Positions 3,751 through 22,648 of a stretch of DNA of 64,000 nt are shown in pieces. Source of the stretch: Cyanobacteria bacterium P01_D01_bin.156 (lineage in GTDB: Bacteria; Cyanobacteriota; Cyanobacteriia; Phormidesmidales; Phormidesmidaceae); the NCBI GenBank assembly GCA_039024555.1, contig JBCCQQ010000013.1, positions 32,001-96,000 on the forward strand, in the 5' to 3' direction. The notes below the pieces were generated by a model. The model was given only the letters and a program-made list of their open reading frames with translations. It had not been told where the DNA came from and did not search any database. A program made the position numbers and the translations under genes. The stretch's first letter is position 1. Each line of letters opens with the position of its first letter.

Positions 3751-3776
3751 AGGTACTTCCCGATAATTTCGGTAAA
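3751..3776 (+). promoter_or_regulatory. CGGTA-type repeat array (copy 1)
   Basis: AGGTA 3751, CGATA 3761, CGGTAAA 3770. Confidence 0.4.
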
Positions 3777-4022
3777 TATACTCATTTTAGTCAAAATATC
3801 TTAATTATTGTCCTGGATAATTACACGCAGATTAGCATGCCTACCCCCTAAAGAGATATCCGTATATTCAACTATATGCTATTAAAAATCTGGCACAACA
3901 TGATACGTAACACCTTTTTATTCAGGGGTTTAGCAGTTTTATTAAGAGATTCAGTGCTTTCCCTGATGCAGTATTTTTGTTTGCCAAACAACAAAATCAA
4001 AAGCTCAGAGGTTTTGATTAAC

Positions 4023-4038
4023 TCGGTATTAATACCGA
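4023..4038. promoter_or_regulatory. Perfect 16-bp palindrome made of two CGGTATT half-sites
   Basis: TCGGTATTAATACCGA equals its reverse complement. Confidence 0.55.
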
Positions 4039-4052
4039 ATAATATAAGTTTT

Positions 4053-4095
4053 CCAAACAGTATTTTTTGCCTTGGTGCAAAAAAATACTGTTTGG
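4053..4095. promoter_or_regulatory. Long inverted repeat upstream of H-NOX
   Basis: CCAAACAGTATTTTTTGC...GCAAAAAAATACTGTTTGG (one bulge). Confidence 0.5.
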
Positions 4096-4205
4096 GAATA
4101 CATTCAAGGCAAAAATTGATTTAATACTTAGAAAGTCAGGAGGTAACCTAGCGAAACCGATGTCGTAAGATCAGCCACATAATTTTATATAGAGGCAGCA
4201 ATAAT

Positions 4206-4757
4206 ATGTACGGATTAATTAATCGGGCTATTCAGGACATGGTGTGCGAGCACTACGGTGTTAGCCTATGGGAAGAAGTCAAACTCAGGGCGGACGTTGA
4301 AGAATCACGTTTCTTGGTACTGCACTCGTACCCAGATGATATGACCCATCGGCTCGTTAAAGCGGCTAGTGATGTGTTACAGCTTTCTAGCAGTGAGATT
4401 ATGGCCGCTTTCGGACGCTACTGGGTGGAATATACCGGTAAGGCAGGATATAAAGAGCTAATAGAAATGGCCGGTGATACATTACCTGACTTTTTAAGTA
4501 ACCTCGATGAGCTGCACTCAAGAGTAGGCGTCCAATTCCCGGAACTTAAACCTCCCGAGTTTAGCTGTGACCAAATAGATGGTCAAAATATTGAGCTACA
4601 TTACCAATCAACCCGCGATGGGCTGGCTCCCATGGTCCTTGGTTTACTAGAAGGTGTGGGCGACCGTTTTCATCAATCTGTTCAAGTCACTCAAGTTGAA
4701 GATCGTCAAGATGGTGCAGATCACGACGTTTTTCACGTTAGATACGAATCTGAGTAG
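4206..4757 (+). CDS. H-NOX (heme nitric oxide/oxygen binding, HNOB) protein
   Basis: MYGLIN start, SYPD, FGRYW, proximal His (LDELH), PPEF, YxSxR (YQSTR), final HDVF. Confidence 0.95.
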   Translation: MYGLINRAIQDMVCEHYGVSLWEEVKLRADVEESRFLVLHSYPDDMTHRLVKAASDVLQLSSSEIMAAFGRYWVEYTGKAGYKELIEMAGDTLPDFLSNLDELHSRVGVQFPELKPPEFSCDQIDGQNIELHYQSTRDGLAPMVLGLLEGVGDRFHQSVQVTQVEDRQDGADHDVFHVRYESE

Positions 4758-4760
4758 GTT

Positions 4761-6188
4761 ATGGACTCTTTTTCCTACACATTATCCCCAAAACATTTTA
4801 CTCAAGCGTTTCCATTCCACCTTGTACTAGATTCTTCGCTAAAAATCGTCCAAACTGGCTGTGTTCTGGAGCGTACTCTAGACCGATCATTAATAGGAGA
4901 TAATGTAGAAGACTATTTTGTCATTTCTCGTCCTAAAATCACCTGGGACTTATCTGTTATTAAAAACAAACAGCAATCGCTGTTCGTCCTATCGGTCAAA
5001 GAGTCAAACATGATTCTGAAAGGGCAGATGGTGTGGGATGCATCCATAGAGAAGCTATTTTTTCTATGTTCAGTCTGGGTGCATAAAGCAAATGATCTAA
5101 AAGTTCTAGGTCTCAAATTTCAGGACTTTGCGCTTCATGATACTACATCAGATTTTATAATTTTACAGCGCACTAGCCAGATGGCCTTGGAAGATGCCCA
5201 AGCACTTACTCAAGAAGTACAGCTGCAGAAAGAACAAGTTGAGACACTTTTAAAGCAACAGGAAAAATTGACTAAGGAGGCTCACGAGCGAGCACAAATC
5301 TTAGAAGAAACATTGATAAATTTGCGTAAAACTCAGCTACATCTGGTCCAAGCTGAGAAAATGAGTGCTTTAGGTCAGCTCACAGCTGGTATTGCCCATG
5401 AGATCAATAACCCTCTGGCTTTTATTAGCGGCAATCTTCAGTATCTCGAAGGGGATATTACGAACTTGCTCAAATTTGCAGCAACGTACCAAACCCAAAA
5501 TAATTATTCATCCCCTTCTTTGGAAGAGGCTTTTGCTCAGTTAGATTTTGAGTTTCTAGAAGCAGATTTGCCAAAGCTTTTAAACTCTTTGGAAGCCGGT
5601 AGCGATCGCATCATGGAAATCGTTAATGCACTACGGACATTCTCTCGTCTAGATGAAGCACCTATTAAACAAATAGATATCCATGAAGGACTGGATAGCT
5701 CGCTGCGGCTACTACAGCATCGCTTTAACGAAAAACCGCATCGATCAGAAATTGTTATTCATAAACGCTACTTCAATTCTCTGCCCAGCATTGAATGCTA
5801 TGCCGGGCAGCTCAATCAAGTGTTTATGAATGTGCTGGCAAATGCAGCTGATGCCATAGAAAATTCCTATCAGGAACATCCGATGATTCAGATTGCTACC
5901 GACCAACTTGACAACCATTGGATTCAGGTTTCTATCTTGGACAATGGCTCTGGCATTCCAGAAGAGGTCCAAAATAAAATTTTTGATCCGTTTTTTACCA
6001 CTAAACCAATTGGCAAAGGGACAGGATTAGGTATGTCCATTAGCCGACAAATTGTTACAGAACAGCATAGTGGGCGATTTTATTTTCAAACTCGTAGAAA
6101 TGCAGGCACCCAGTTCTTTATCGAGCTACCAATTAGTCAATCCTTGCCCGCTGCTAATACAGCCAATGAGTCGATGCAAGAAAATTAA
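4761..6188 (+). CDS. HNOBA (H-NOX-associated PAS-like) domain histidine kinase
   Basis: N-terminal [23 protein letters not shown] as in sGC HNOBA domains; H-box AHEINNP, N-box NQVFMN, G boxes DNGSG/GTGLG. Confidence 0.9.
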
Positions 6189-6270
6189 ACATCGCTTTGT
6201 AGAGACTTTCCAAGAGAACATCTGCTAATGCCCATTGACGATGCCTACAGTCGCAGAGAACTATTAGGTT

Positions 6271-6612
6271 CTAAAAAATCAAGAGATTTAACGGTACTGG
6301 ATCTCCAAGCCAGGTCGCATGATCCGTATGATCTGCCAGATCGTTTCCGGTCAATCCATGCACAAGCACAGTAAACTCTCCTCGGTTGTTGTCCAACCAT
6401 GGAATCAGTCGATCAAATTGGGTTTTATCAAAGGCTAATTGACAGCTCCGACAAGGGTGCGGACCCACTGGCTTTTGATGGACTCGACCCACATTTACCC
6501 CAAATAATTCTCCAGCCTGCTGACATAGGGAAGCTGCTTTTTGGGTGGAGTTGCCATCGAAATAAACATGGGCGTGATACTGGTCATAAATGTTGGTGGG
6601 ACGTTTTGTCAT
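6271..6612 (-). CDS. DOPA 4,5-dioxygenase family protein
   Basis: YHAHVYFD, VGRVHQKPVGPHP, VLVHGLTGNDLADHTDHATWLG. Start placed at ATG 6612. Confidence 0.85.
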   Translation of the reverse strand: MTKRPTNIYDQYHAHVYFDGNSTQKAASLCQQAGELFGVNVGRVHQKPVGPHPCRSCQLAFDKTQFDRLIPWLDNNRGEFTVLVHGLTGNDLADHTDHATWLGDPVPLNLLIF

Positions 6613-7009
6613 AGGTGAATCACATAAAATATCAGACATCTTGTTACCAATATAGGATTCGTGGCATTTCAGGCCGAAAATCCCTAGTTCAGCCTGTAGC
6701 ATGGTTATCAAAATACCCCAGAGTACGGGCCGTTTTTAGTCGCGGTTACTTTTTACATAGGTTCAGTTAGAGCTTCTTGGAGGCGGGTCTGAACCAAAAA
6801 CAAGTCGAGCCTATCAGGCAAATTGGAGCAACGCATTTGGCTAGCCTAAACAAAACATAATTTAGGTCCATAACCTAAATCATGACACCCCCGCAGGATG
6901 AAGCTAACTACAGTCTATTGAGTAGGCAAGATAGCCCTGCACCCATACGCTGTGGGGAACAGCATTAAAACACTGTAGCCATTGCTAAAGATTCAGCAGG
7001 CTCTAGTGC

Positions 7010-7762
7010 TTACTTGCTTGGGAACTGGTTAATATGGGCCACGCCGTAGAAAACTAGCTCCTTATTTCGCATCCTCACTTTATCAATGCGTAGCTGGGTG
7101 CCATCCAACGCAAAGGAATCTAGGTCCATTAACGCATTCACATGCTCGACAATGGCCTTAGCAAGGGCAATATCCTGATCGGTACCGCCGCAGCTAACAT
7201 CTACAAATGCCAGCTTCTTGCGCTCGTATACCTCTACGCGGGCCGTCAACGATATAAAGTTGGGTGGCGCTGACGTACTACCTACCCGGACCTGGCTTGT
7301 CAATGCAATGGTCTTATCGTCATTTAGCTCCATTTCAGTCCCACTAAAATAAAGCGCTTGATTGTCAAACTGCATACGCTGCAGCTTTTCCACCACAAAT
7401 GGCGTATTAAAGGATGTGGTCAAATCTTCTTCGGTGAGTACTACCCGCATGGACGCTTGGGTAGGCTGCTTGATCCTCACTTGGCCTTTAAAGATAGCGC
7501 CAAAATCAATAGATACCGCTTGTACAAACAGCTCCATAGCTTTGATGCGTAGGCCGTTGTACATCAGCATGCTGTGGCCTACAAAATCAAAACCGTCCAC
7601 ACTACCCTGGAGCAACTTAGCAACGGGTTCAGCCCGTACATTAGCCTCCAGCTTGCCGGTACGCTTAAACAAAGCGGCAATGGCACTGCTCACTGCCTTG
7701 CTGACCACTTGGTCACCGCCCTGTCCTGGAAATGGTAAATTGCCTAGCACGAAGGATGTCAT
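7010..7762 (-). CDS. DUF2993 / LmeA-like family protein
   Basis: V.AEP..KLLQGSVDG, IDFG, VVLTEEDL..SFN motifs typical of the cyanobacterial family. Confidence 0.7.
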   Translation of the reverse strand: MTSFVLGNLPFPGQGGDQVVSKAVSSAIAALFKRTGKLEANVRAEPVAKLLQGSVDGFDFVGHSMLMYNGLRIKAMELFVQAVSIDFGAIFKGQVRIKQPTQASMRVVLTEEDLTTSFNTPFVVEKLQRMQFDNQALYFSGTEMELNDDKTIALTSQVRVGSTSAPPNFISLTARVEVYERKKLAFVDVSCGGTDQDIALAKAIVEHVNALMDLDSFALDGTQLRIDKVRMRNKELVFYGVAHINQFPSK

Positions 7763-8095
7763 TCCTGATCAATGAGCGATTTCACAGCAACGATAGCCGA
7801 AATCAAACGTATGTGGTCAGCCCTATTATGTACTTATTTTAAGAAATGTAACCAGTGAAAACGATACCTTTCCCTTATCAATGGGATTGAAAGACTAAAA
7901 GGATTGTAATGCAGGTCTTCCCATATCTTCAGACAATCTAGCCGGAATCGTTGATCCTGGCGTTTGCAAGGCTTTGTAATAGAGATGAAAAAACGTCAAA
8001 ACCATTACAGACTAAGATTTTCGAGTTAGTCAGTATAGGGCCAATCATTTTTTACTCACAGAATACTGAACGATGTCGTATAGGTAGATATATCT

Positions 8096-9145
8096 ATGGT
8101 TAGCATAGAGAAAAAGCAATTGCTAAATCACTATCCACGGGGATGCACCTTTGCCAACGACGATTGGGATGCGATCGCACCGTTCTGGTTTCCCGTTGCC
8201 TTTAGCCACGAGGTAAACGATCAACCAGTATCAACCACCTTGCTGGATCAGCGCCTGGTGGTATGGCGCACGAGCCAAGGGGTATCCGTTGCCAATGACC
8301 TATGTCTGCACCGCGGTGTACCCATGAGTATGGGGCAGGTCAAGGGCGATCAGCTAATTTGCAAGTACCACGGCTTTCACTACGATGCCAGCGGCAAATG
8401 CACCCTGATTCCGGCCAATCCCCAAGCAAGTATTCCAGCCCGCCTATGTCTAAAAGCCTATCCTGTCCGTGAAGCCTACGGTCTGGTGTGGACTACCCTG
8501 ACGGGCGATGGCAGTGATTCAAACCTCCCCCAGCTACCAGAATGGGACACCCCAGACTACCAGCCCATATTGCCGAACAGCTTAGATATTAATGCAGCTG
8601 CAGGTCGGCAAATGGAGGGTTTTTTGGATGTGGCCCACTTTGCCTGGGTCCATCATGAAGCGTTTGCCGACCGGGATAAGCCAGAGGTACCCCCCTATAC
8701 CGTTACAACGACACCGATGGGGTTGCGAGCTGAGTATACTAGTAATGTTAGTAATTTCCCTAAGGGATTACAGCATCGGGCACCCGCTGATTTTCAGTGG
8801 CTGCGCGTATTTGATGTGTTTCTACCCTTTGCCGCCATTTTGCGGGTGCATTTTCCAGATGGGGGACGGCTGTGTATTCTCAATGCGCCATCACCTATGT
8901 CCGCTCGAAAAACTCGGTTATTCTCTCCCCTGTGTCGTAATTTTGACCAGGATCAGCCCCTAGAGCCTGTCTACGAATTTAATCGACAAATTTTTACAGA
9001 AGATCAAGAGGTTGTGGAAGCTCAATACCCTGAGGACTTACCTTTGGATTTACGTACTGAGTGCCACATTGAAGCCGATAAAACCTCTATTGCCTATCGC
9101 AAGGGACTGGCACAGCTAGGACTTAGCAAAGTGTACACGGCTTAG
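8096..9145 (+). CDS. Rieske non-heme iron oxygenase, VanA-like (O/N-demethylase or monooxygenase type)
   Basis: Rieske CLHRG / CKYHG; mononuclear Fe site EGFLDVAHFAWVH...FTED. Confidence 0.9.
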   Translation: MVSIEKKQLLNHYPRGCTFANDDWDAIAPFWFPVAFSHEVNDQPVSTTLLDQRLVVWRTSQGVSVANDLCLHRGVPMSMGQVKGDQLICKYHGFHYDASGKCTLIPANPQASIPARLCLKAYPVREAYGLVWTTLTGDGSDSNLPQLPEWDTPDYQPILPNSLDINAAAGRQMEGFLDVAHFAWVHHEAFADRDKPEVPPYTVTTTPMGLRAEYTSNVSNFPKGLQHRAPADFQWLRVFDVFLPFAAILRVHFPDGGRLCILNAPSPMSARKTRLFSPLCRNFDQDQPLEPVYEFNRQIFTEDQEVVEAQYPEDLPLDLRTECHIEADKTSIAYRKGLAQLGLSKVYTA

Positions 9146-9246
9146 GGGTGGGCATACTGGGGGTGCGTCGACGCATTGAGTAACCCTTTAGAGCGCGCTC
9201 AACCCTGTCGGTGGTGCATTCTTATCGTCACATCCTGACTATCAAT

Positions 9247-10401
9247 ATGTTTAAAGTAGCGGTTGGCCATAGCATTGACCCTGATTCTAGTATGGCCATT
9301 GATGAGGCTTTAGGTCAGTGTCAACAACAGCTGGCTGGTATCGTGCCCCAGGCTGGTTTGCTGCTCAGTGCAGTGGATTTTGACCATGGTTTAATTTTGC
9401 GGAAAATTCAAGCCACATTTCCCGGTATGGCGCTGATTGGCGGTACTACCGTTGGGGAAATGTCCTCCGTCCTGGATTTCCAGGAAGATTCTTTAAGCCT
9501 GATGCTGTTTGCATCGGATGAAGTGACGATTCAATCAGGGCTGGGGACTAGGGTTTCTCAAGATGCGATCGCAGCCACTCGACAAGCTATTCCTGACCTC
9601 AACGGTAGACCAGCTAAATTATGCTACACCGTGGGAGAAAGTCTTGGTGTAGATGGTGTTGACATTGTTAACGGCCTCCAGGCCGCCCTAGGTGAAGATG
9701 TAACCATTTTTGGGGGGCTGACAGGAGATGACTGGAAATTCAAACAGACCTATCAGTTCTTTGGTGACCAAGTCCTGAGTGATGCTGTAACTACCCTGGT
9801 TTTTTCCGGTAATCTCATGATTTCCTGCGGTGTTGCCACAGGGCTAAGGCCCATCGGTCGTAAAGGAATTGTTACCAAATCCCAGGGTAATACTGTGCAT
9901 ACTATTGACAATCAATCCGTAAAGCATTTTTATGCTCAGTATATGGGGGATAGTTCCATTGCAGATGTGGGTGGTGCCTGGGGGGGGTCCGTAGCCGTCT
10001 TTGAACCAGGAGAAGAGAATTTTTATGTGCGAGGTCCTAATAGTCAGGATGAAGCTTCCGGTAGTATAGACTACTTTGGCCAGGTTCCAGAACAGGCCCA
10101 TATTCAACTTACTGAATCTAATACTGAAAGTTTGTTAAATGCCGCGTCCCAAGCTCTCAAGAGAGCCCAGGCCGACTATCAAGGCACATCTCCCAGCGTT
10201 GCCCTCATTGTTTCCTGTGCTGCTCGCATGAAATCCCTAGGAACGCGTACTCGCGAGGAATATGCGGTTGCCCAATCCGTATTAGGCAAACTCCCCAATA
10301 TAGGGTTCCATGCCTACGGAGAAATTTGCCCCCTAGGTACAACTGGAAAATCGTTTTATCACAATGAAACGTTCACCACCGTACTGCTAGGTACCCATTA
10401 G
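9247..10401 (+). CDS. FIST (FIST_N + FIST_C) sensory protein, NosP-like
   Basis: [35 protein letters not shown] motifs; ATG at 9247. Confidence 0.9.
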
Positions 10402-10442
10402 TCGTGGCAAGTTCCCATGCAGTCGTTACAGCTACATTAACC

Positions 10443-12086
10443 ATGGAGGATCTGACCCCAGACGAGTTACATCAGCGAATTGCAGACCTGGAACGGAGCA
10501 ATCGCATTTTAGAAAAGAAACTAGCCCGATCAGAAGCCACCAGGGGCGAGTTAGAAACCCTAAGTCAGCGACGTGAACTGATGCTAAAACAGCTGCTGCG
10601 GGAAGTAGAAACGGCCAAAGTAGATCTCGAAACTGCTAAGGAAGTTGCTGATAAAGCCAATCAAGCCAAGAGTGAATTTTTGGCCAACATGAGCCACGAG
10701 CTACGCACTCCCCTAAATGGGATTTTAGGCTACGCTCAAATTTTGCAGCGAGATAGCCAAACCACCCATCAACAAAGAAGCGGTCTGGCCATTGTGCAGC
10801 AGTGTGCCCAGCATCTGTTGACCCTGATCAATGATATTTTAGATCTTTCAAAAATTGAGGCCCGTAAATTAGAGCTACATCCTGAACCTTTGGGGGTGGA
10901 TGATTTTCTCTACGGCATTAAAGAGATTTGTCGGATTAAAGCCGAACAGAAGGATCTCACGTTTCAATATGAAGCGGTCAATCAGCTACCTACTGCCATC
11001 AAAGCAGATGAAAAACGTCTGGGACAGGTGCTCATTAACCTGTTGGGGAATGCTATCAAATTTACGGATCGGGGCCATGTTGTTCTTAAAGTGGGGTCTT
11101 TAGATCCTGCTACCTCCCCTAGGTTGAGTTCCCAGGAATCTTCTAACCAAGTTCGACTCCAGTTTCAGGTAGAAGATACGGGTATTGGTATGACTCCGCC
11201 CCAGCTGGAGAGTATCTTTTTGCCTTTTGAGCAGGTGGGCAGTGCGGAGCGTCAGGCCCAGGGAACTGGCCTAGGGTTAGCCATTAGTCGCCAGATTGTA
11301 GAACTAATGGGTGGTACCTTACAGGTTAAAAGTACCTACGGTGAAGGCAGTACTTTCTGGTTTGATCTAACCTTGACCGTTGCTGACGACTGGCAAGGTC
11401 GCCACAATGAGCCGTCAGTCTTGGATACGATTGTTGGTTATGGGGGCGATCGCAAACGGATTTTAATTGTCGATGACCGTTGGGAAAATAGATCTGTTTT
11501 GCGCAATCTACTCACCCCCCTCGGGTTTGATATCCTCGAAGCCGAAGATGGTAAAGCGGGATTGGAACAGGCAACAACCCAGATACCCGATCTGATTATT
11601 ACCGATCTGGTCATGCCAGAAATGGGCGGCTTTGAAATGACTCAGCAACTCAAACATTCTGACGCTACTAAGGACGTCCCCATTATTGCCTCCTCTGCCA
11701 GCGTGTTTGATTTTGACCGTCAGCAAAGCTATGCCGCGGGCTGTAATGAATTTCTCCCGAAACCCATCCAAATCGATGAACTCTTCGGTTATCTGCAGCA
11801 GCACTTAAATCTAGTGTGGCAGCATAGCGCCGCCGTCGCCGTTGAAGACAATAACCCCACTGGGAAAACCATTACCCTACCCCCCATTGCCATACTCAAA
11901 ACCCTACATGCCACCGCCGAAGCAGGCTATATCCTAGATGTTCAGACCATGGCAGAGCAGCTATTAACGGAACACGAAGCATTTGCTAGAAAAATTTTAG
12001 CCTTTGTGGACGAATTAGACGACGAAGCCGTTGTTGACTATATTGCCCCCCATCTAACAGAGTCTGCAGGAGGTGAAGCCCAATGA
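10443..12086 (+). CDS. Cytoplasmic hybrid histidine kinase (coiled coil-HisKA-HATPase-REC)
   Basis: [35 protein letters not shown]; receiver ILIVDD..TDLVMP..KP. No TM segment or sensor domain. Confidence 0.92.
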
Positions 12087-13360
12087 CACCCCCAAAAATA
12101 ATCGCTAGCTTATCCAGCACCTCCGAGCAAGGCGGCCTCACTTGCAAGACACAAGATAAGCAGTCGATTTTAATTGTTGACGATAACCCCAACAATGTTA
12201 AGGTCCTCTGCGATCTTCTCAATAAAAACAATTACCGCGTTTCCATTGCTAAAAGTGGAGAGAGTGCCCTTAAAAAAGTGGCACGCTCATCTCCAGACTT
12301 GATCTTATTAGACATTATGATGCCCGGTATTGATGGCTTTGAAGTGTGTTCTCGGCTCAAAGCAAATCCGGATACTAAAGATATTCCCATTCTTTTTATG
12401 ACGGCTCTTTCCGATACCCTCAACAGGGTAAAAGGACTCAGCTTAGGCGCTGTTGACTACATTACTAAACCCATTGAACATGAAGAGACCTTAGCCCGTA
12501 TCCAGGTGCACCTGACCCTGCGTCAAACCCAGGCACAGCTGGTACAAGAAGAAAAAATGGCAGCACTAGGTCAGCTGGTGGCCGGTGTCGCCCATGAGAT
12601 TAATAACCCTCTAAACTTTATCTGTGGGAATTTAGAACCTGCTGTAGACTACGCCAAGTCTCTGTTAGAGCTGCTGCGCTTATATGAGGACAATACGACT
12701 TCTCCTTCAGCAGAGATTGCCAACTATGCTGAAGAGATTGAACTGGACTATATTCGCCAAGATTTTTTGCGGTTGCTCAATTCTATGGTGGTAGGTGCAG
12801 AACGCATTGAGAAAATTGTGCGTTCACTGCAGCTGATTTCACGAGTGGATGACTCTGTGCGCAAGCCAGCGGAACTACAGGATGGTTTAGATAGCACCCT
12901 GATGATTTTGCACAATCGCTTAAAAATACAGCCTGGGCGGCCTGCGATTGAAGTGGTTAGAAAGTATGAGCCATTGCCCTTAGTGCAGTGCTATCCTGGC
13001 AAAATCAACCAGGTTTTTATGAATTTGATCGTTAATGCCATCGATGCCATTGATGATAAGTGTTCTACTTTATCTACTGAGGAGCTAGAGACCGTAGAGC
13101 CTTCATTATTGATTTCAACAACTTTGGAAAATGAACAGGCTGTCATTACTATTTCAGATAGTGGAACCGGCATTCCTGCTAATATTCAACAGCGCATTTT
13201 TGATCAGTTTTTTACGACAAAACCAGCTGGAAAAGGAACAGGATTGGGCCTGGCTATTTCCCACGCCATTGTCACCCAAAAACACCGAGGAGAACTTACG
13301 TTTAAGTCTCAGCCAGGTATCGGTACAGACTTCATTATTAAATTACCGCTACTGGTCTAG
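12083..13360 (+). CDS. REC-histidine kinase hybrid
   Basis: ILIVDD..LDIMMP..KP receiver followed by AHEINNP and HATPase boxes; 4-nt overlap with the upstream gene. Confidence 0.92.
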
Positions 13361-13380
13361 GCTGATGCCATCTATAATCT

Positions 13381-13450
13381 TGGTAATTTAACGGTATTTT
13401 AGGTAGTCGTTAATTCTTAAATTCGGTAAAAAGGCGATGGATCCGGTATC
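13381..13450 (+). promoter_or_regulatory. CGGTA-type repeat array (copy 2)
   Basis: TGGTAAT 13381, CGGTATT 13392, AGGTAG 13401, CGGTAAA 13424, CGGTATC 13444. Confidence 0.5.
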
Positions 13451-13551
13451 TGCTGTCGAAAGGTCTTCAAGGGTAGGAAGAGAGCGCTAATCTAGATACG
13501 TACCACAGCGAAAGCTTTGATATCTAAATATTCTTTATTAAGGAGTGAAGG

Positions 13552-13770
13552 ATGTCGTCTAAACCTACTGAAAACAAATTTACTTCCGCAGACAGTACCC
13601 GACTCATTGCTTTGTTAACTCTTTTAGAAGCCAGTGTTGCCATGAAAGTAGACAGCACTATAACTGGCATTCTGTTCGCAATCATTATAGTAGTGAGTAC
13701 GTGCTATCTAGCAGTCGATATTTGGGGCCGAATCGTCAGGTCTGTTAGATCTTTCAAACGGTATCGTTAG
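13552..13770 (+). CDS. Small membrane protein (about 2 TM), hypothetical
   Basis: AAGGAG RBS; two hydrophobic segments; basic C-terminus. Confidence 0.6.
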   Translation: MSSKPTENKFTSADSTRLIALLTLLEASVAMKVDSTITGILFAIIIVVSTCYLAVDIWGRIVRSVRSFKRYR

Positions 13771-13808
13771 AGAGATTGTGAGGTGACTATAGAATCCTAA
13801 AAATACCC

Positions 13809-14753
13809 TTATTCATTGCTAAGTCTCTTTAAAGAGTTGAGGGACTTACGTAGCTCTCTTAAGGATGACCATCTGGCCTGCCCAGTGATAAAACCATCGG
13901 GCATTCTGGTATTGATAAGATTGGCCCCTTTGAGTTGTTTAAAGGTTAAATTAGTAGCACCTGAGAGATCAGCATTTTCCAGGTTTGCCTCCCAAAGAAC
14001 TACATTCTGTAGATTGGTGTCCATAAGCTTAGCTCCCTTTAAGTTAGCGCGCCACATGTAAGTCCTGGTCAAATCTGCATGTTGTAGGTTGGCATTCTCA
14101 AGGTTCGCATAGGACAGTTTGCTTTTGGCAAGATTGGCATACTGCAGATTAGTTTTTGAGAGATTAGCTTTCCACAAATTTGCTTTACTTAGATCGGCAT
14201 TCTGCAAATTAGCTGTACACAAATTTATATTCTGGGCACGAATTTGAGACAGCTTTGCAGATTCTAAGTTAGCACCCTCAAAATTAGAGTCTCTAAGATC
14301 GGCGTTATTTATATTGACACCGACAAGATGTACGTTTGGCAAGACTGCCCGCGTTAAGGAAACGTCTTCGGCTACTAATGTTTCTAACGCCCAGGGACGG
14401 GTTTGGCTGTTAGGAATATGGGCTGTAGTATCGAGCATCTTGAGCAGTTCTTTCTGTCGATGCAGCTTACGATTGGGGGCTTCTTTGTAGAAGAGTATAA
14501 CCACCATGATCGTGGCGATGGATTCGGCTCGGTCAAACAAAATGGCCAAAACTTTACGAGAGAGAAGGTCACTTGGTTGGGTAAGGGTTGGATCGCTGTA
14601 TAGTGCGATCTCACCCAGCAAAGTAACTGAAACACCGCAAACAACCCAGCTAGGTGAACGATGTAGATTTGACATCACACATTGCTTTGTACGACCAAAC
14701 CGCCGTAAGCATCTATTGATAAAGCGTCTAAGCTGAAAGACAGGTGATTTCAT
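13809..14753 (-). CDS. Pentapeptide repeat protein with N-terminal hydrophobic segments
   Basis: Long A(D/N)Lxx repeat tract (ANLQN ADLSK ANLWK ANLSK...); start uncertain. Confidence 0.85.
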   Translation of the reverse strand: MKSPVFQLRRFINRCLRRFGRTKQCVMSNLHRSPSWVVCGVSVTLLGEIALYSDPTLTQPSDLLSRKVLAILFDRAESIATIMVVILFYKEAPNRKLHRQKELLKMLDTTAHIPNSQTRPWALETLVAEDVSLTRAVLPNVHLVGVNINNADLRDSNFEGANLESAKLSQIRAQNINLCTANLQNADLSKANLWKANLSKTNLQYANLAKSKLSYANLENANLQHADLTRTYMWRANLKGAKLMDTNLQNVVLWEANLENADLSGATNLTFKQLKGANLINTRMPDGFITGQARWSSLRELRKSLNSLKRLSNE

Positions 14754-14777
14754 CCTATATTCTCAGTACAACAGCAA

Positions 14778-15167
14778 CTAACTATCCGAGGAGGTAGATG
14801 TCAGATCGACTTCATTAAGAAAGAGATGTAAGGGCTGCTCTTTGTAAACCATCCTATTCAATATGCTCTGGCCGCAAATCTCCTGTAAAAAAAGAGTTTG
14901 AGAGAGACTATTTGCTGACATGATTTGAGCATTCAGTAGCATTTCTAAGACATGTATCTGAGAGCGCAACCTCGACTCATCGTTAGTTTCTTGGTAACTC
15001 TTTGCCATCGTATTGATAGTGGTCTTGTTACCTGTTGGCAGTATGATCAATAGTCCTTTAGTCGCTATTCCCAAAATTCGACTCAGCAAGACGGTAGCCG
15101 TAGCCTGTGCGAAAATATGAGGTAGATCGGTAATCAACCAGGGTTCTGATATTACTAAAATTGCCAT
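14778..15167 (-). CDS. Hypothetical protein
   Basis: 129-aa ATG ORF co-oriented between the NfeD-like and pentapeptide genes; hydrophobic N-terminus. Confidence 0.45.
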   Translation of the reverse strand: MAILVISEPWLITDLPHIFAQATATVLLSRILGIATKGLLIILPTGNKTTINTMAKSYQETNDESRLRSQIHVLEMLLNAQIMSANSLSQTLFLQEICGQSILNRMVYKEQPLHLFLNEVDLTSTSSDS

Positions 15168-15330
15168 AGTGAGATTGTCACAGCTCTTTAAGACTGTGCC
15201 TCATTAGTGTTAATAAAGTAAATAAACCTTGGATATGTCTGAGTTTGTTCTGTGGCGTCGGTAGGCTCTTCTTTTCCTACGACACACCAGTATCATCAAA
15301 CTTTTGAGCTTCTGAGGAAATCATTAGTGG

Positions 15331-15579
15331 CTATACAATTGGCTCTACGATTAACGTATTCCCCTGGCGATCTAGAATCCTTACTTTTTGTCCAGACTTC
15401 AAGATGCTACTACCTTCCTGACAAATTGCTGACCAAAGTACACCTCCATAGCAACGGACACGTCCTGCTCTAAAGGATTTGATTTCATCAGTAACAACTG
15501 CTATCTCAGAACCTAAATATCTACTACTAGCAGCTTTAACTGTTGTTGCTTGTTTGTTGTTGTAAAACAATCCGAACAT
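15331..15579 (-). CDS. Stand-alone NfeD-like C-terminal (OB-fold) protein
   Basis: AVVTDEI...GRV...GVLWSA......GQKVRILDRQGNTLIVEP. Confidence 0.8.
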   Translation of the reverse strand: MFGLFYNNKQATTVKAASSRYLGSEIAVVTDEIKSFRAGRVRCYGGVLWSAICQEGSSILKSGQKVRILDRQGNTLIVEPIV

Positions 15580-15729
15580 AATTCTTACCCCTCTGGTTTC
15601 AGAAGCTGAGTGTTTTATATCGGCAGCAATATCAGCGGAAACTTGTTATAGACGACATTAAAAGACAGCTGATCTGGTGTCGATATAAAAATCGTATCAC
15701 TGAAAACCCTCTCTGAGTAAAGAACACAG

Positions 15730-16230
15730 CGGCTTTATCCGGATAATTGGAGCGAGAAAATCGGTATTAAAGGGTAATTTTTATAACCTGTTTTCTCGTT
15801 GATGTGTGATTTTATGGCCGTAGCCAAACAAAATCAGAAATTCAAGTGTGAGAGAAATCTAAAAAACTTTATAAGGTAAAATTTAAGGCGAAGACATAAC
15901 ATGAGGAACTTATCGGTAAATTTCGGCTTTAAGACTGTTGGTGTTGGCTGATAGTGACAGTGATATTGATGAGAAGGATATTTATTATCAGCATCAAATT
16001 ATATATTATCTCTGTCTGTTAGGAGGAACCAACATAAGCCGTGAAATCCAGATGATGAATAAACTTGAAGCTTAGAACTCGGAATATTAGGTAAGAGGTG
16101 CATTCCGAATTTCAAACTCTAGAGTTCTTGGGAACCCATTCTACGTTGTGTTGATGTCCGGTATTTAGCGGTATTTTGATATCGTTTTCTTCGGTAATTT
16201 AATGAAAAAAGCCGATGTTTCCGGTATTCA
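15730..16230 (+). promoter_or_regulatory. Dense CGGTA-type repeat arrays in the NfeD/NACHT divergent region
   Basis: Units at 15730/15740, 15762/15772, 15914/15924, 16080/16089, 16159/16169, 16192, 16213/16222, mostly paired 9-10 bp apart. Confidence 0.6.
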
Positions 16231-16516
16231 ACTGTTCTGAAAAGTGAGCATACCTGTTCAATAAGTTAAACTGGTCGAACGCGTGAGGGATTTTCTTCTT
16301 GTGCGTAAAATTTGACTAGAGGTTCAGTCTTACCTGCATGAAGACCTGTTGTTAGCAGCTTACAAGCTACTGGGAGCAGGTTAGTAGTGAAGGGACTGTA
16401 CCTGACGACTAGGTAACCCTCATACTCAGCCTATCGTAGCCATAGTATACCATAATAGTTCGTATGAACTATGAGTGGTTCGTGTGGCTGTATAAGCCGT
16501 ATACCGAGCAACCGTT

Positions 16517-18991
16517 ATGGCCGCTAAAGCTTACGAAGTAGATAAGAAGATTTTTCAAGCATTACTGGTAGCATACCAGGAGAAATGTGGTTCTTCGCCT
16601 TCTAACTTGATTGACAGACTCAACCAAGCTTTTCCAGAGGACTTAGACGTTCTTCGTAAGAAGAGAGGGGGGTCTACATCCCGAGATCTGATTTCTGATA
16701 AGACCATCCGTAATTTTTTTAACTCCGATCAGCCTGGCCGTATGGTCGAAAAAAATCTCAACTTTCTGTGTCGCTATCTGCTGAGCTTCTCTAGCTATCG
16801 GGATGCGCTTAATAATTATAAATCAGGTAATACTACACCCCGAGGCAATGAGCTCAAACTCCAGCCTTCAAAGTCTTTGGTTACATCCTGGATCGAGCCC
16901 TATGTTGCGTACTTTATTAAAAAGTATGATCAGGTTCGAATCCCTAATATGACTAGATCTGCTCATATTGACTCTGTTTACACGGAGTCAATGCTATCGG
17001 AGGACCTGCGTATTCGTAGACGTAAGTCTTTTTTAGAACTACAGGCTGAGATGGAGCCAAACTATGTAGAAACTAAATCTCGGACTACTGTTTCTGATGT
17101 GTTTTCCGAGCACGAGCGTCTTATGGTTTGGGGTCCTGCAGGGTCAGGAAAAACCACGTCCCTAAAGTTTTATGCTCTTCGTATTGCTGAGTCTCTTCGT
17201 TCAAAGCCTGATGGTTCATTAGTTCCAATATTTATTGAATGTTCTCGGTTCTCAACGGCTGAAGTTGAGACTGATTTGCTTAAGGTAATTGCTGGCAAGC
17301 TTGAACATGGCGATATGAGTCCTGAAGAGTCTCAGGACATAGCCAAAGACTTGCTCAAGCATGGCCAGTGTATTGTTCTTCTAGATGGACTAGACGAAGT
17401 ACCTAAAGATATTAGACCCAAGGTATCTAGGCAATTTGACATACTGATTAATAAATATCCTAAAAATCGCTTTATTCTCACCTGCCGCTACGGAGCTACG
17501 GAATCTGTACCTGAGAACTTTACTGAAGTCGAGATGACCGACTTCGATCAGAAACAGATCTATACCTTTGTACATTCGTGGTTCAAGGATAACGATGAGA
17601 AAGGGGTTATTCGGAGATTTCTAGCGTATCTAAAAGAACACTCAAACATTGGGAAATTAGCAAAGAATCCTCTTCTGTTGACAATGCTTTGCTCAATTTA
17701 TGAACAGGGATACGAGTTTCCCAAAGGAAAAAGTTCTCTATTTGAAGATGCTACCGATCTCTATTTGCGGAAATGGGATTCTTATCGTCGTATCGATCAT
17801 AGAGACAAGATTTACGATGGTTTGCTATCTAGACCCAAACGACGAGATCTGTTTAGCCGACTCGCTTACGAAGGCATGAATCGTCAAGATATAGCTAAGA
17901 GCTTCTGGCGACGTACAGATCTGCAGAAGTTTATCAGAGAATACATTGAAAATTTGAAGGATGCAAAAGAAAAGTCGTTAGATGATGACGCCCGTCAGAT
18001 TTTGGATGCTCTAGAGTCCCAAGATAGCTTACTAACCCGCTCCGCCCATGAAGTTTATACATTCTCCTATGAGGGCTTTTCAGCCTATTTTACTGCTATG
18101 AAGGTTAAAGAAGAAATGGGAACTGAGCCTAAACATTGGAATCGCTTTCTAAAAGAACATGCTCTACAGCCTGAATGGAGAGAGTCTTTACTGTTTACAG
18201 CTGAGCAGCTTTCAGAAGCTAATACGTTCTTGAAGTGCTTGTTTAAGCTGATGCAGCAGCAGCTTGATGTCTTATCTGATACAAGTAGACAGCGCTTAAT
18301 GGAAGCGTTTGAATGGTTAGAGCAGGCAACCGATGGCGCTAAGGTTAGCTCCAGTGCATGGCGTGCTTGTTTTCTTTCATTCGATTTAGAAACTGACCTG
18401 CGTATTTCTCGTAAAACAAAAGGGATGGATAATCAAACAGCTCAAAGGGTTGCTACAAAGCTACGAGCTGTGAATAAACAAGCAGGAAGTTTGAAATCTA
18501 GAACAGACGCGGCCAAGCTGAGTCTGGATCTGGCTGTTATCCACACACTGGTAATGGATAGGGCTGAGAACTTGCCTACCAAGATTGAAATGCTTGAGCA
18601 CTACGACCCAACCTATCGAGCTGCACAACAAGATATCTCTGATAGATATAAAGACTCAATTGAGCTTGCAGAAAAGCTAAAGCCTGAGTTAGCAGAAGAA
18701 CTACATCAGCTCACAGATTCTATACCAAATCTTGAACAAGCATCCTGTAAAGCTTGTCAAAACTGGGCTGAAGCGCTCCAAGTTCTAATGAAACAGTATC
18801 TATATGAAGGGTATGCCATTGTTCTAGAGCCTCAGGAAGTTGATGCCCTTAACAACTACTTATATCTGTGCGAACTTCTGGTTGATTGTTTACAGGCAGA
18901 CATTTATTGCTCTAAATCTTTACGAGAAGATTTACTTGAGGCTTTGATGCTACCGTCATCCAGTGATAAAATACCTGGAACACTTTTATAA
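16517..18991 (+). CDS. NACHT (STAND) NTPase with putative N-terminal HTH and cyanobacterial C-terminal helical (NCH2-like) domain
   Basis: Walker A GPAGSGKTT, Walker B VLLDGLDEV, ILTCR, NPLLL. N-terminal ISDKTIRNFFN resembles an XRE-type recognition helix. C-terminal YLYLCELLVDCLQ...EALMLP. Confidence 0.88.
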   Translation: MAAKAYEVDKKIFQALLVAYQEKCGSSPSNLIDRLNQAFPEDLDVLRKKRGGSTSRDLISDKTIRNFFNSDQPGRMVEKNLNFLCRYLLSFSSYRDALNNYKSGNTTPRGNELKLQPSKSLVTSWIEPYVAYFIKKYDQVRIPNMTRSAHIDSVYTESMLSEDLRIRRRKSFLELQAEMEPNYVETKSRTTVSDVFSEHERLMVWGPAGSGKTTSLKFYALRIAESLRSKPDGSLVPIFIECSRFSTAEVETDLLKVIAGKLEHGDMSPEESQDIAKDLLKHGQCIVLLDGLDEVPKDIRPKVSRQFDILINKYPKNRFILTCRYGATESVPENFTEVEMTDFDQKQIYTFVHSWFKDNDEKGVIRRFLAYLKEHSNIGKLAKNPLLLTMLCSIYEQGYEFPKGKSSLFEDATDLYLRKWDSYRRIDHRDKIYDGLLSRPKRRDLFSRLAYEGMNRQDIAKSFWRRTDLQKFIREYIENLKDAKEKSLDDDARQILDALESQDSLLTRSAHEVYTFSYEGFSAYFTAMKVKEEMGTEPKHWNRFLKEHALQPEWRESLLFTAEQLSEANTFLKCLFKLMQQQLDVLSDTSRQRLMEAFEWLEQATDGAKVSSSAWRACFLSFDLETDLRISRKTKGMDNQTAQRVATKLRAVNKQAGSLKSRTDAAKLSLDLAVIHTLVMDRAENLPTKIEMLEHYDPTYRAAQQDISDRYKDSIELAEKLKPELAEELHQLTDSIPNLEQASCKACQNWAEALQVLMKQYLYEGYAIVLEPQEVDALNNYLYLCELLVDCLQADIYCSKSLREDLLEALMLPSSSDKIPGTLL

Positions 18992-19060
18992 GTTTGGTAT
19001 CGCTTGCGCTTAGCACCGATGGCTCTGTTTATCTAATAACAAGTCTATAATCTGCTTAAG

Positions 19061-20752
19061 ATGCAGCAGCAGTTTATGAAAATCAAATCTGCAGTTCTCC
19101 CAATTCTTATAGGTATTTGCTCTTACGGAATTTTTCTTGCCCTTTCGAGAGTCTTTGGACCTGATTTTAGTATTCGTAACATTTCTATATTAAATCATTC
19201 TGTACTACAGCCTGCAATGTTTATCGCTGTTGCTGCTGGCTTATATTTGAATGTATCAGAAATTAATACTTCAGAGCTACTCAAAAATAGAGCTGCTATT
19301 TTAGCTGTACTACTTGTTGGTGTTCCCGTAAAAATACTTGTCCCAGGTTTCATATTGTTCGGAGTATCTTCTTTTGGGCTAGGTGTAGCTTTGCTGTGTG
19401 CTACAGTCATTGCTCAAATAGACCCTATCCTTACAGCTCGTAATGTCGATCCCGAACGATTTAGTGAAAAATCTGGAACGATTCTGAGATGCTGGTCCAG
19501 TTTTGATGATCCTATTACGGTCTTATTCGCCTTTTATGTCTTTTTGCCCCTTTTTTTTGAGGCATCGTCAGGCTCGATTGGTAGCTATCTGTTTGGATTA
19601 TGTATAGAAACTTTAGTTTGTGGTAGCACTGCTCGGTTTCTTTATGATGCTAATATTCGCTCCCAAAAGCTAGGGGTGGTTGCTACCTGCTTGAGTAGTG
19701 CCCTACTAGGTAGATTCTTACTACCGGCCGCTCTGGGGCTAGCCGTTCGTCCATTTAGAAATGAAAGGACTAAAACGACGCTTCTGAATTGGATTTTTTG
19801 GTTTAGTGCAGCCGTGATTGGTGGATTAGCCGTTGGTCTAGATATAAATTGGACTGCTGGCCTTGTTTTGGGCGTAAGCACGTTTGCGATCGCGCAGCCC
19901 TTGGTTTCCTTGATGTTTATCCGAGGTGACAGTCCGCCTAACTTTTGGCGTATAGTCTTTGGGCATCAGAATGGTATGACCGCTATTCTGTTGACAATTG
20001 CCATCGAATTACAAACAGGGCAAACACAGCTGATGTCGATTACAATTCCAGCAGTTTTGTTTATTGCTTTGTTTTACGGCTTCTCTAATTGGTGGTTAGA
20101 TAGATATTGGCCCACTCCCAACACTTCAGAAGTAGGCTTCTCTCAGAGAAATATTCAATCCTTGATGGACCAACCAGAGGTAAAATCACTAAGCAATAGC
20201 TCATCATATTCAGCCGTAGACAATACGAAAGAGCTAAATAAAATCGTAAATGAAATAGAAGACTTAACTAAGTTGACCGATGATGCACAGGAGGCCCTAG
20301 CAAATAGCCATCATTACACGGTCACTCAACTAAGGCAGAAATATAGACCCGAACCACTGCTAAAAAATGAGCTTGAGCATGAATTAAAGCAACAGCAGCA
20401 GTGTATCAATAGTTCACTAAATCATCTTGATAATTTAAAAGCATATCTTTTAGACATTCAAAGGCAAATAATCAAACAACAAAAAACTCTTTCTACAGAT
20501 GTGCCTAAGCCACTACGAGTGGATTTTGATGGAGCTCATAGGTTGCTTATGGCTGTAATCAAACCTGGCCATAGACAGTCTATGAACGCCAAATCACCTA
20601 CTACAGATGCAAAACTTGAAAAGCAATCGCTTACATTCAGCAAAGGTCACGAGTCAAGCAAACCAATCGAGGCCTATACAGCAGACATTACAGCCAGACT
20701 AAACAATATAGAGGAACGTTTACAAAAGTTCTGCAACGTATCCAATAAGTAA
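19061..20752 (+). CDS. Cation:proton antiporter-like membrane protein with long soluble C-terminal tail
   Basis: About 11-12 hydrophobic segments with AQIDP and WSSFDDP motifs resembling CPA transporters; ~200-aa hydrophilic, partly coiled-coil tail. Confidence 0.6.
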   Translation: MQQQFMKIKSAVLPILIGICSYGIFLALSRVFGPDFSIRNISILNHSVLQPAMFIAVAAGLYLNVSEINTSELLKNRAAILAVLLVGVPVKILVPGFILFGVSSFGLGVALLCATVIAQIDPILTARNVDPERFSEKSGTILRCWSSFDDPITVLFAFYVFLPLFFEASSGSIGSYLFGLCIETLVCGSTARFLYDANIRSQKLGVVATCLSSALLGRFLLPAALGLAVRPFRNERTKTTLLNWIFWFSAAVIGGLAVGLDINWTAGLVLGVSTFAIAQPLVSLMFIRGDSPPNFWRIVFGHQNGMTAILLTIAIELQTGQTQLMSITIPAVLFIALFYGFSNWWLDRYWPTPNTSEVGFSQRNIQSLMDQPEVKSLSNSSSYSAVDNTKELNKIVNEIEDLTKLTDDAQEALANSHHYTVTQLRQKYRPEPLLKNELEHELKQQQQCINSSLNHLDNLKAYLLDIQRQIIKQQKTLSTDVPKPLRVDFDGAHRLLMAVIKPGHRQSMNAKSPTTDAKLEKQSLTFSKGHESSKPIEAYTADITARLNNIEERLQKFCNVSNK

Positions 20753-20940
20753 CTTTCTATCATCGGCAATACTACAGAGTGCAGATATATCACTTCCCCA
20801 ATAGTTAAACCTCTTGCATATCAAATCTAAGATGCATAATCCCTAGTAATAACTCACTGATAGTAGCTAATATGCAGTATGTAGTCATGTTGTGTGGAAT
20901 GGGGTTCAGCATTCTAAAATCCATTTCAGAATCTAAATAA

Positions 20941-21000
20941 ACCTTTTTTTTCCTTTAAATACCGTTTTTGTACTTAAAATTACCCTAAATTACCGGTTTT
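20941..21000 (-). promoter_or_regulatory. Six-unit 10-bp-period array of the (C/G/A)GGTA-type motif on the minus strand
   Basis: Minus strand reads AACCGGTAAT TTAGGGTAAT TTTAAGTACA AAAACGGTAT TTAAAGGAAA AAAAAGGT. Confidence 0.55.
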
Positions 21001-21046
21001 TGCTGTACTGTTTGAATTGACAAGTTTATTGGAGGACCGGTTTGTT

Positions 21047-21202
21047 ATGGATAACAACCAAACTGATACATCGGCTAAAGTAGTATGCCAACATAAGCCT
21101 GGAGATGTATGGGCAGATGGTTGCTGTACATCACGTTCAAAAGAAACTAACGAGGCAAAAGCGGGCTCGTTAAGTAAATCTCAGAATGCTACACAAGAGT
21201 AA
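21047..21202 (+). CDS. Small hypothetical protein (51 aa, Cys/His-containing)
   Basis: GGAGG at 21031, ATG at 21047; CQHKPGDVWADGCC; directly downstream of the phased array. Confidence 0.5.
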   Translation: MDNNQTDTSAKVVCQHKPGDVWADGCCTSRSKETNEAKAGSLSKSQNATQE

Positions 21203-21353
21203 ATTACTATATTTGTAGCGTTTGTGTGTCTGTAGATGTCTTATATCCGTACGTAGGTCCAGGTGTCTGTTTCTCAGATTTCTGGACCTTTAAGTATGGC
21301 GCGATTGCAAAACCAATGATCAATATTGCTGCAATAATTTGCACCTCACCCTC

Positions 21354-21423
21354 AGGCTCCGCCTGCTGCTAGTCAGGTGGCAGAGCCACCGCACCCGTTT
21401 ACCAGGCAGAGCCTGTGCACCAG
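21354..21423 (+). repeat. Partial cyanobacterial REP/MITE-like element (AGGCTCTGCCT / AGGCAGAGCCT family)
   Basis: AGGCTCCGCCTG..CAGGTGGCAGAGCC..CCAGGCAGAGCCTGTGCACCAG; related copy at 22588-22648. Confidence 0.55.
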
Positions 21424-21473: not shown

Positions 21474-21580
21474 ATGGCCAGAGATGTTTTCCATAAGCAG
21501 GTCAAAAACGCCCTGATCAAAGATGGATGGCACATTACCCACGCTCAATATCCCATCCGCATCAGCAATGGATAAACTAA
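21474..21580 (+). pseudogene. xisH: xisH remnant (large internal deletion)
   Basis: MARDVFHKQVKNALIKDGWHITH matches the XisH N-terminus; it joins directly to CAA TGG ATA AAC TAA (QWIN*), a typical XisH C-terminus overlapping the xisI ATG. Confidence 0.75.
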
Positions 21581-21903
21581 CTCAGTATCAAAATGCGATC
21601 AAACAAATCTTGAGCGATCATGTCGGCACCTCTCCATCAACCGATACCGTCCAAAACCAGCTTATCTTTGATGATGAAAGAGGACATTACCAGCTAATCT
21701 ACGTTGGCTGGTAAGATAAAAAGAGAGTCTTTGGCCCCGTTTTACACTTTGATATTCAAGACGGCAAAATCTGGGTTCAACACAACGGCACAGAAGACCC
21801 TATTGCCCAGCAGTTACTCGCCTTAGGTGTTCCAGAGTCCGATATTGTTCTCGGCTTCCATTCAGAGTTTAAACGTCAATTCACTCCTTATGCAGTGAGA
21901 TAA
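21568..21903 (+). pseudogene. xisI: xisI with in-frame premature stop (TAA at 21712)
   Basis: MDKLTQYQ..IFDDERGHYQLIYVGW*DKKRVFGPVLHFDIQDGKIWVQHNGTE..GVPESDIVLGFH..TPYAVR*. Confidence 0.85.
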
Positions 21904-21931
21904 TGATCAAACTAGTGAGATAACGATCAAA

Positions 21932-22587: not shown

Positions 22588-22648
22588 CTGGTGCCCAGTC
22601 TGCGCTTGCGCGCCCCCGCGCTAGGCTCTGCCTGCTAACCAGGTGGCA
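22588..22648 (+). repeat. Partial REP/MITE-like element, complementary half to 21354-21423
   Basis: CTGGTGCCCAG...AGGCTCTGCCTGCTAACCAGGTGGCA. Confidence 0.5.

Follow-up and report, generated by a model that had tools for sequence, protein, structure and literature searches.

The stretch analysed here (the window, 64,000 nt of contig JBCCQQ010000013.1 within the 6.6-Mb genome of Cyanobacteria bacterium P01_D01_bin.156) carries, between 13.4 and 21.0 kb, several arrays of the short repeat CGGTAW next to a gene for an 824-amino-acid NACHT protein of the STAND class (16517..18991, plus strand) and a gene for a 51-amino-acid cysteine peptide (21047..21202, plus strand). These arrays are a local module and no genome-wide regulon, and the NACHT protein is probably a STAND transcription activator that binds them and switches on the peptide gene. 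In homologous loci the repeats are conserved, strand-biased, and set at a period of 10 bp, their distance to the -10 box of the peptide promoter is fixed, and the peptide and regulator genes occur nearly one to one. The motif was fixed beforehand by an earlier reading of the window (the original prediction), which took its arrays for the operators of a hidden regulon; a broader form, CGG[TCA]AW (CGGHAW), was used alongside it.

The main predicted target, the peptide gene, was missed by the original prediction. It encodes the core C-x-H-K-x-G-x-x-W-x-D-G-C-C, in the window with a proline after the lysine (C-x-H-K-P-G-x-x-W-x-D-G-C-C), and is preceded by GGAGGA at 21031-21036. A strict pattern detects the gene in 43 of 56 stretches, and visual inspection or a less strict pattern added four further copies (L046, L114, L126, and L135). 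Conservation at the three codon positions is 0.84/0.90/0.57 (39 distinct cores); third positions vary and residues stay, which argues that the peptide is under selection as a protein. Pfam and NCBIfam scans gave no family for it, its 55 database matches are unnamed, "hypothetical," or "uncharacterized," the best Atlas match (0.81) is uninformative, and one homologue compared with viral contigs found no match, the repeat pattern not being searched there. Among 351 genomes of a family other than that of the source genome, 53 carry the regulator, 52 carry the peptide, and 51 have the two together; the three exceptions are a gene near a contig end (G685), an assembly of 1,410 contigs (G799), and a near-complete genome (G608).

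An antisense array lies within 200 bp of the peptide gene in 40 of the 43 stretches (the misses being L014, L109, and L128), and on the peptide strand this array reads as three to four TTRCCG units at a 10-bp period. A TAnnnT box follows the last repeat by 7–9 bp in 32 of these 40 promoters, against a mean of 4.7 and a maximum of 11 in 1000 shuffles, with spacers of 7, 8, and 9 bp tallied 8, 21 (the mode), and 8 times. The commonest -10 boxes are TATACT (14), TATGAT (8), and TATAAT (6), the -35 position is taken by the repeat itself, and the start codon mostly lies 40–80 bp past the last repeat. In L109, ~500 bp separate the array from the peptide gene. In L127 and L129, the downstream array (at +2.8 to +2.9 kb, counted from the start of the NACHT gene) faces another small open reading frame (ORF) in place of the cysteine peptide. 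The product of this ORF has a hydrophobic N-terminus and, close to its end, a PGGxGR motif that may recall the RGSGR signalling peptides of cyanobacteria.

A second set of arrays is found upstream of the regulator gene. The sample comprised the 900 bp upstream of 45 distinct homologues, the window excluded, drawn from 55 distinct loci (eight weak homologues were scored separately and one had no upstream DNA). Exact CGGTAW occurs there 62 times in sense and 10 times in antisense orientation, compared with 8.5 in shuffles, and 13 pairs of sites lie 9–11 bp apart, every one of them at exactly 10 bp, vs. 0.01 expected. With the broader motif, 38 pairs are spaced by 10 bp, 19 by 20 bp, 8 by 30 bp, and none by 9 or 11 bp; 25 of the 45 upstream regions contain a CGGHAW pair, compared with none of 15 upstream of NACHT genes with other N-termini. 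A triple-repeat pattern has matches in 22 of 25 regulator-positive genomes, 20 of them at the locus. No fixed -10 box accompanies these arrays (antisense side, 1 of 35 at a spacer of 6–10 bp; sense side, no clear peak), and the same-strand array upstream of the regulator is likely to be autoregulatory or to control a divergent gene, a role less clear than that of the peptide-promoter array.

In the window itself, the arrays are concentrated in a stretch of low GC content (13361-21300; 0.408 vs. 0.458 and 0.464). Exact sites number 12 across the 1692 intergenic bp of 13361-21046, whereas 2000 dinucleotide shuffles gave 1.11 ± 1.06 (maximum 6, p=0.0005); the remaining 4698 intergenic bp below 30 kb contain 5 vs. 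2.35 expected (p=0.08), and the whole window contains 63. A position matrix built from 62 distinct homologue units only, scanned over the 6.6 Mb with a cut-off of 14, gave 349 matches, 50 of them intergenic, among which the five arrays of the window rank 1, 3, 4, 7, and 12. Array C (16157..16230, plus strand; units 16159, 16169, 16192, and 16222) lies upstream of the NACHT gene and ranks first with its unit at 16159. Array D (20945..21005, minus strand; units 21005, 20995, 20985, 20964, and 20954) ranks third (20995, minus strand), reads as TTRCCG repeats on the peptide strand, and covers the -35/spacer region predicted for the peptide promoter. Array A (13379..13451, plus strand; units 13381, 13392, 13401, 13424, and 13444; rank 4 at 13424) lies at the left edge of the low-GC island, ~100 bp upstream of a 72-amino-acid ORF, a two-unit array (15912..15933, plus strand; units 15914 and 15924) ranks seventh at 15914, and array B (15728..15781, plus strand; units 15730, 15740, 15762, and 15772; rank 12 at 15762) lies ~150 bp upstream of an NfeD-like gene. 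An Rfam gathering scan of the window gave no matches, and a scan for sigma70 sites over 13.3-21.5 kb gave a lower count than shuffled sequence did.

These results support the helically phased operators tied to the NACHT locus that the original prediction proposed, with arrays conserved upstream of homologues and a candidate binder encoded on the spot, and they agree with its claim of no comparable arrays after 22 kb, where nothing reached the matrix cut-off. Its listed units are motif-like at every coordinate but exact at only 11 of 19 plus-strand positions (3770, 4024, 13392, 13424, 13444, 15762, 15914, 16159, 16169, 16192, and 16222), the other eight being degenerate (3751, 3761, 13381, 13401, 15730, 15740, 15772, and 15924), and at two of six minus-strand units of 20941-21000 (20959 and 20990). 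The phasing of ~10 bp that it described is exact in the homologues, but the window's own spacings vary (9, 10, 11, 20–23, and 30 bp). The array ending that it found in common, CCGG..(G/A)CTGT, lacks conservation in the promoters of homologues. A genome-wide regulon has to be given up: CGGTAW shows no 10-bp periodicity across the genome, which rejects a global regulon, and the arrays cluster at one locus. There are 92 clusters genome-wide, and a filter for AT-rich clusters not in frame is passed by six, three of which are the window arrays.

The NACHT protein matches PF05729 and PF22727 (HTH-NACHT-NCH2 architecture, where HTH is helix-turn-helix) and has intact Walker A and B motifs, which also hold across 35 aligned homologues; it is the predicted regulator. 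It is also the only constant DNA-binding candidate, since no gene besides the regulator and the peptide is present in more than 12 of 50 loci. Its N-terminal domain (16517..16834, plus strand; ~105 amino acids, modelled as a 106-amino-acid head) is followed directly by the NACHT module. Pfam scans gave no family for the head, a search of PDB sequences with its profile found nothing significant, and the best Atlas matches (0.89, "hypothetical"; 0.87, RcgA-like) are leads only. An AlphaFold2 model of the head is mostly helical, with five long helices and a mean confidence (predicted local distance difference test, pLDDT) of 84.6. Compared with 48,161 chains, its best structural matches, down through the top 50, are nearly all XRE/cro-C1 helix-turn-helix domains, including SinR, CapH, ImmR, and 434 repressor; the top match, 3f6w (root-mean-square deviation 3.1, 71 aligned residues), has a Z-score of 6.3, the maximum, and values under 8 (~13 for helical folds) may reflect a mere common arrangement. 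The head is accordingly predicted to fold as an XRE-type helix-turn-helix domain, with SDKTIRNFF as its predicted recognition helix, because the match list is uniform and not because of the Z values.

The head domain is single-copy in the source genome. Genomes that carry it number 7 of 151 in the source's own family (the source genome included), the 53 of 351 in the other family, and 16 of 401 across the class. Locus-pattern searches of genome contigs gave 0 and 1 relatives, and a metagenome scan gave 6. PADLOC matched the NACHT part only (PDC-S60, E 9e-14). Full-length homologues also occur on named cyanobacterial plasmids (hits H1-H3), one of them, L147, with both array and peptide, and in L014 a transposase-like ORF splits the NACHT gene. 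In the source genome, 12 NACHT paralogues match XssQ, a NACHT protein of Synechocystis sp. PCC 6803, and have at least four kinds of N-terminus, with a canonical XRE-type head on C2. Some control NACHT genes (L030, L033, L035, and L044) carry their own short tandem repeats upstream, and paralogue-specific operators may therefore be general.

Motif variants in the arrays follow a residue of the predicted recognition helix. Loci with a lysine in this helix (S-D/E-K-T; n=29) have CGGTA as the dominant form (units with 106 T, 32 C, and 28 A), and loci with an arginine (n=20) have CGGCA (11 T, 77 C, and 16 A); L115 was not parsed, and coding-repeat matches in L019 were set aside. Counted per locus, T outnumbers C in 26 of 29 lysine loci and C outnumbers T in one, whereas C outnumbers T in 16 of 20 arginine loci and T outnumbers C in none. 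On a tree of 48 proteins, the helix residue changes six times and the motif five times. The correspondence is suggestive only, and it makes the helix residue a candidate specificity residue.

Binding, an activating sign of control, the inducer, and a role for the peptide are inferred. As in MalT, AfsR, and XssQ, an inducer may be sensed by the C-terminal helical/NCH2 region, leading to ATP-dependent oligomerisation. The XRE-like heads would read the 10-bp direct repeats (CGG[T/C/A]AW-N4), several heads aligning head-to-tail on one face of the DNA at successive helical turns over the -35/spacer region, and once bound would recruit sigma70 RNA polymerase and turn the peptide gene on; the arrays upstream of the regulator would serve autoregulation or the control of divergent genes. 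The peptide might be a metal- or thiol-binding output that feeds back on the receptor, a tentative proposal whose last step is a guess. More speculative again is a two-gene cyanobacterial NLR circuit with transcription as its output, in which the NACHT receptor would sense an intruder or stress, oligomerise on the 10-bp operator ladder, and induce one dedicated cysteine peptide, which could either execute the response (inducible immunity or growth arrest) or bind the receptor as a feedback ligand, a self-encoded peptide switch.

Several observations, in addition to the middling Z-scores of the fold comparison, weigh against an activator acting on these arrays. A strict pair is missing from 20 of the 45 homologue regions, and none of the eight distant homologues has a pair upstream. 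A single family supplies more than half of the homologues, and the counts therefore overstate independence. A matrix score of at least 20 upstream of NACHT in 36 of 49 loci is circular, because the matrix was trained there, and coding DNA reaches matrix scores as high as those of the intergenic arrays. Well-supported independent lysine/arginine pairs number just two to three, all concordant (p 0.25-0.5). In sequence, hhalign gave 0.2% for the head and the HTH domain of XssQ; with an XRE group of 8 rows as the partner it gave 2.4%, the E value of 0.019 applying to the recognition helix. The -10 of the peptide promoter in the window is non-canonical (TGTACT at a spacer of 8, TACTGT at 10), and since the repeats there are irregular as well, the window copy may be weakened. 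Finally, of 116 genomes that lack the regulator, 18 also match the triple-repeat pattern, compared with 4 for the reversed control.

The same NACHT protein could instead bind the arrays as a repressor, which would sit on the -35/spacer region and hold both its own operon and the peptide gene off until a signal frees them. Most proteins of the XRE fold repress, the structural matches of the head include SinR, CapH, and phage repressors, and the arrays overlap the region bound by RNA polymerase. However, the tightly fixed spacer to the -10 (7–9 bp, mode 8), the fixed orientation, and a repeat that fills the -35 position are the geometry of an activator of the SARP type, and XssQ activates (PMC8205485), which makes repression improbable. 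Control by a separate chromosomal regulator, such as an OmpR-type response regulator that binds the arrays and has the NACHT gene as one target, has a slightly smaller chance. Tandem 10-bp repeats are typical of winged-helix regulators, and both the matches in regulator-negative genomes and a mild excess of sites in an H-NOX promoter of the window would fit such a protein. A global regulator would, however, leave arrays elsewhere, and here they cluster at one locus; moreover, the motif variant follows the NACHT helix residue, and no other gene is constant at the locus. Around the extra triple-repeat matches, 20 stretches were fetched, of which 10 are coding, 5 share one unrelated repeated element, and 5 are other intergenic tandems, and no head domain was found near any of the 20. 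The shared element (L152, with two copies, L153, L154, L155, and L156) is intergenic, at least 120 bp long, has CCG units spaced by 10 bp, and stands in unrelated gene contexts; HTH-NACHT was not found in those genomes, and the element is possibly the end of a mobile element.

An activator at the arrays is favored far more strongly over the two readings that involve no transcriptional control. In the first, a mobile element carrying a cargo island would have the inverted arrays as its ends, sites for a transposase or recombinase, consistent with arrays that face each other around the NACHT operon, the low-GC island, the patchy distribution, the changing neighbours, and the plasmid copies. This is strongly disfavored, with very little probability left to it: array and peptide stand together upstream of NACHT in L121, L122, L123, and L125 and are inverted in L110, and since they move and invert together, with the second array staying at the peptide promoter, the array is a promoter element and not the end of an element. 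The peptide also lies outside the supposed ends, the -10 is at a fixed distance, and there is no conserved recombinase. Chance repeats in AT-rich DNA, for which the lack of genome-wide periodicity and the many degenerate units could speak, are refuted for 13.4-21 kb by the local enrichment and by the exact 10-bp phasing in independent genomes, and may account at most for the sites at 3751-4038. SigF/DIF1-type promoter motifs and NtcA sites were also considered and rejected, as they fail to explain three to four phased repeats followed by a canonical -10.

The divergent promoter of the H-NOX and enzyme genes (sites at 3751..4038, no strand assigned) contains single copies of the motif, together with a 16-bp palindrome that is perfect (4023-4038); these sites probably lie outside the module. 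The original prediction had joined this promoter to the NACHT locus in one regulon, a link that the results do not support: the sites score below the cut-off of 14 (10.9 for 3751-3775; 9.0 and 10.4 for 4023-4038), and no arrays were seen upstream of H-NOX matches in four same-genus genomes (L140-L143, the L141 stretch being coding DNA). A tblastn search of the 55 homologous stretches gave no H-NOX either. The promoter holds 3 exact sites in 738 bp vs. 0.40 expected (p=0.006, for a region chosen after the fact), and the palindrome belongs to a set of 14 inverted CGGTAW pairs in the genome and to its three perfect CGGHAW palindromes; because a 16-bp palindrome is unusual, a weak link to the module is conceivable, if rather unlikely. 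A near-perfect hairpin with a 19-bp stem follows directly (4051-4098), with a partial extra copy of one arm at 3969-3987.

The other genes of the neighbourhood are variable. A 72-amino-acid ORF (13552..13770, plus strand), with a hydrophobic C-terminal half, is a possible accessory target; it has no Pfam match below E 0.06, no NCBIfam match, and no homologue in 55 related stretches. The small NfeD-like gene (15331..15579, minus strand; PF01957, E 1e-12), divergent from the NACHT gene, is taken as accessory, and a similar divergent gene occurs in L009 (by tblastn) and L011 (by pattern). A membrane protein weakly like CPA1 cation/proton antiporters (19061..20752, plus strand; TIGR00831 at E 0.068 only) is likewise accessory, being present in 12 of 50 loci by neighbourhood clustering; at 20120-20752 it has a coiled-coil-like C-terminal extension of ~210 amino acids, which has no match in related loci, their versions of the protein stopping near 350 amino acids. 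A divergent protein of 170-180 amino acids is equally frequent (12 of 50), and a WD40 protein is found in 10 of 50. In L018, L046, L099, L101, L104-L109, L111, and L112, the divergent protein (160-180 amino acids) has two similar helical repeats, which by eye resemble the dimerisation helices of histidine kinases. Its start codon, where measured, lies just 16-44 bp beyond the upstream array, which may therefore overlap its promoter. At the right edge of the island, a XisI gene is interrupted by a stop (21571-21910; PF08869 on the first 47 amino acids), followed by a Uma2 gene (21932-22498), and a GC-rich inverted repeat pair stands at 21392-21414 and 22623-22645.

Many cyanobacterial NACHT proteins have no known output, and XssQ is the one found here with a demonstrated DNA site. 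Accessible parts of the literature describe XssQ (Slr5058), for which electrophoretic mobility shift assays and mutants show binding to single or tandem upstream sites and activation of nearby genes (PMC8205485), with a further account of XssQ (PMC13125312) and of Anabaena homologues (PMC12267927). The protein of the window is like XssQ in having an N-terminal HTH (predicted here), NACHT, and NCH2, at 25% identity over 656 amino acids (E 7e-41). It differs in its operator, TTRCCG at a 10-bp period as opposed to AAGTTXXAC, which has spacings of 12 and 23 bp in xssE and xssL, and in its predicted target, a small cysteine peptide where XssQ acts on polysaccharide genes; no XssR/XssS pair or sulfated extracellular polysaccharide cluster is present among the conserved neighbours of 50 loci. 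No description of the operator or the peptide was found in the literature searched, with most subscription papers outside reach and the protein possibly listed in the supplements of PMC8205485 or of the bNACHT preprint cited below.

The target of AfsR, afsS, is a small adjacent gene. AfsR and the large SARP activators of Streptomyces, which are STAND-type, bind direct repeats whose last copy is placed over a poor -35, at a distance of 8 bp from the -10 (PMC10936776). The last repeat here likewise stands ~8 bp before the -10 in 32 of 40 promoters (7-9 bp), an arrangement that the window's own copy fails to show. Unlike the 11-bp period of SARP sites, the period here is 10 bp (38 pairs, in three to four copies, none at 11), and in place of an OmpR-type plus BTA head and a TPR sensor there is an XRE-like head (predicted), NACHT, and NCH2; Pfam scans of the protein gave no BTAD family.

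MalT of E. coli is another STAND transcription factor, activated by inducer-dependent multimerisation (PMC4381067, in the text available). Unlike MalT, which is not a NACHT protein, the protein of the window has its head at the N-terminus. MalT has a C-terminal LuxR-type head and maltotriose as inducer, binds arrays of boxes, and is controlled by small partner proteins. Antiphage bNACHT proteins share the NACHT module, a C-terminal helical domain, and a patchy, island-borne distribution, and differ in that no enzymatic effector is present here. Passages of a bNACHT preprint list HTH and winged HTH "transcription regulatory" effectors and cyanobacterial abundance, and those passages give no binding sites, targets, or peptide partner (10.1101/2022.07.19.500537); defence STANDs are set apart from transcriptional regulators in the available part of PMC13581612.

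The NACHT protein thus appears to work like XssQ and AfsR, being neither an XssQ orthologue nor a SARP. It would represent a second subfamily, with a predicted operator, a target gene that is obligate, a defined geometry of the promoter, and a residue that is a candidate for setting specificity, in which control of transcription by an NLR-like oligomer, and its induction, can be tested with a few hundred bp and two genes. Its peptide partner is a conserved family that has neither a Pfam nor an NCBIfam model and is present in ~15% of one family's sampled genomes. If the reading is true, cyanobacteria could gain an orthogonal inducible part in this pair of promoter and regulator.

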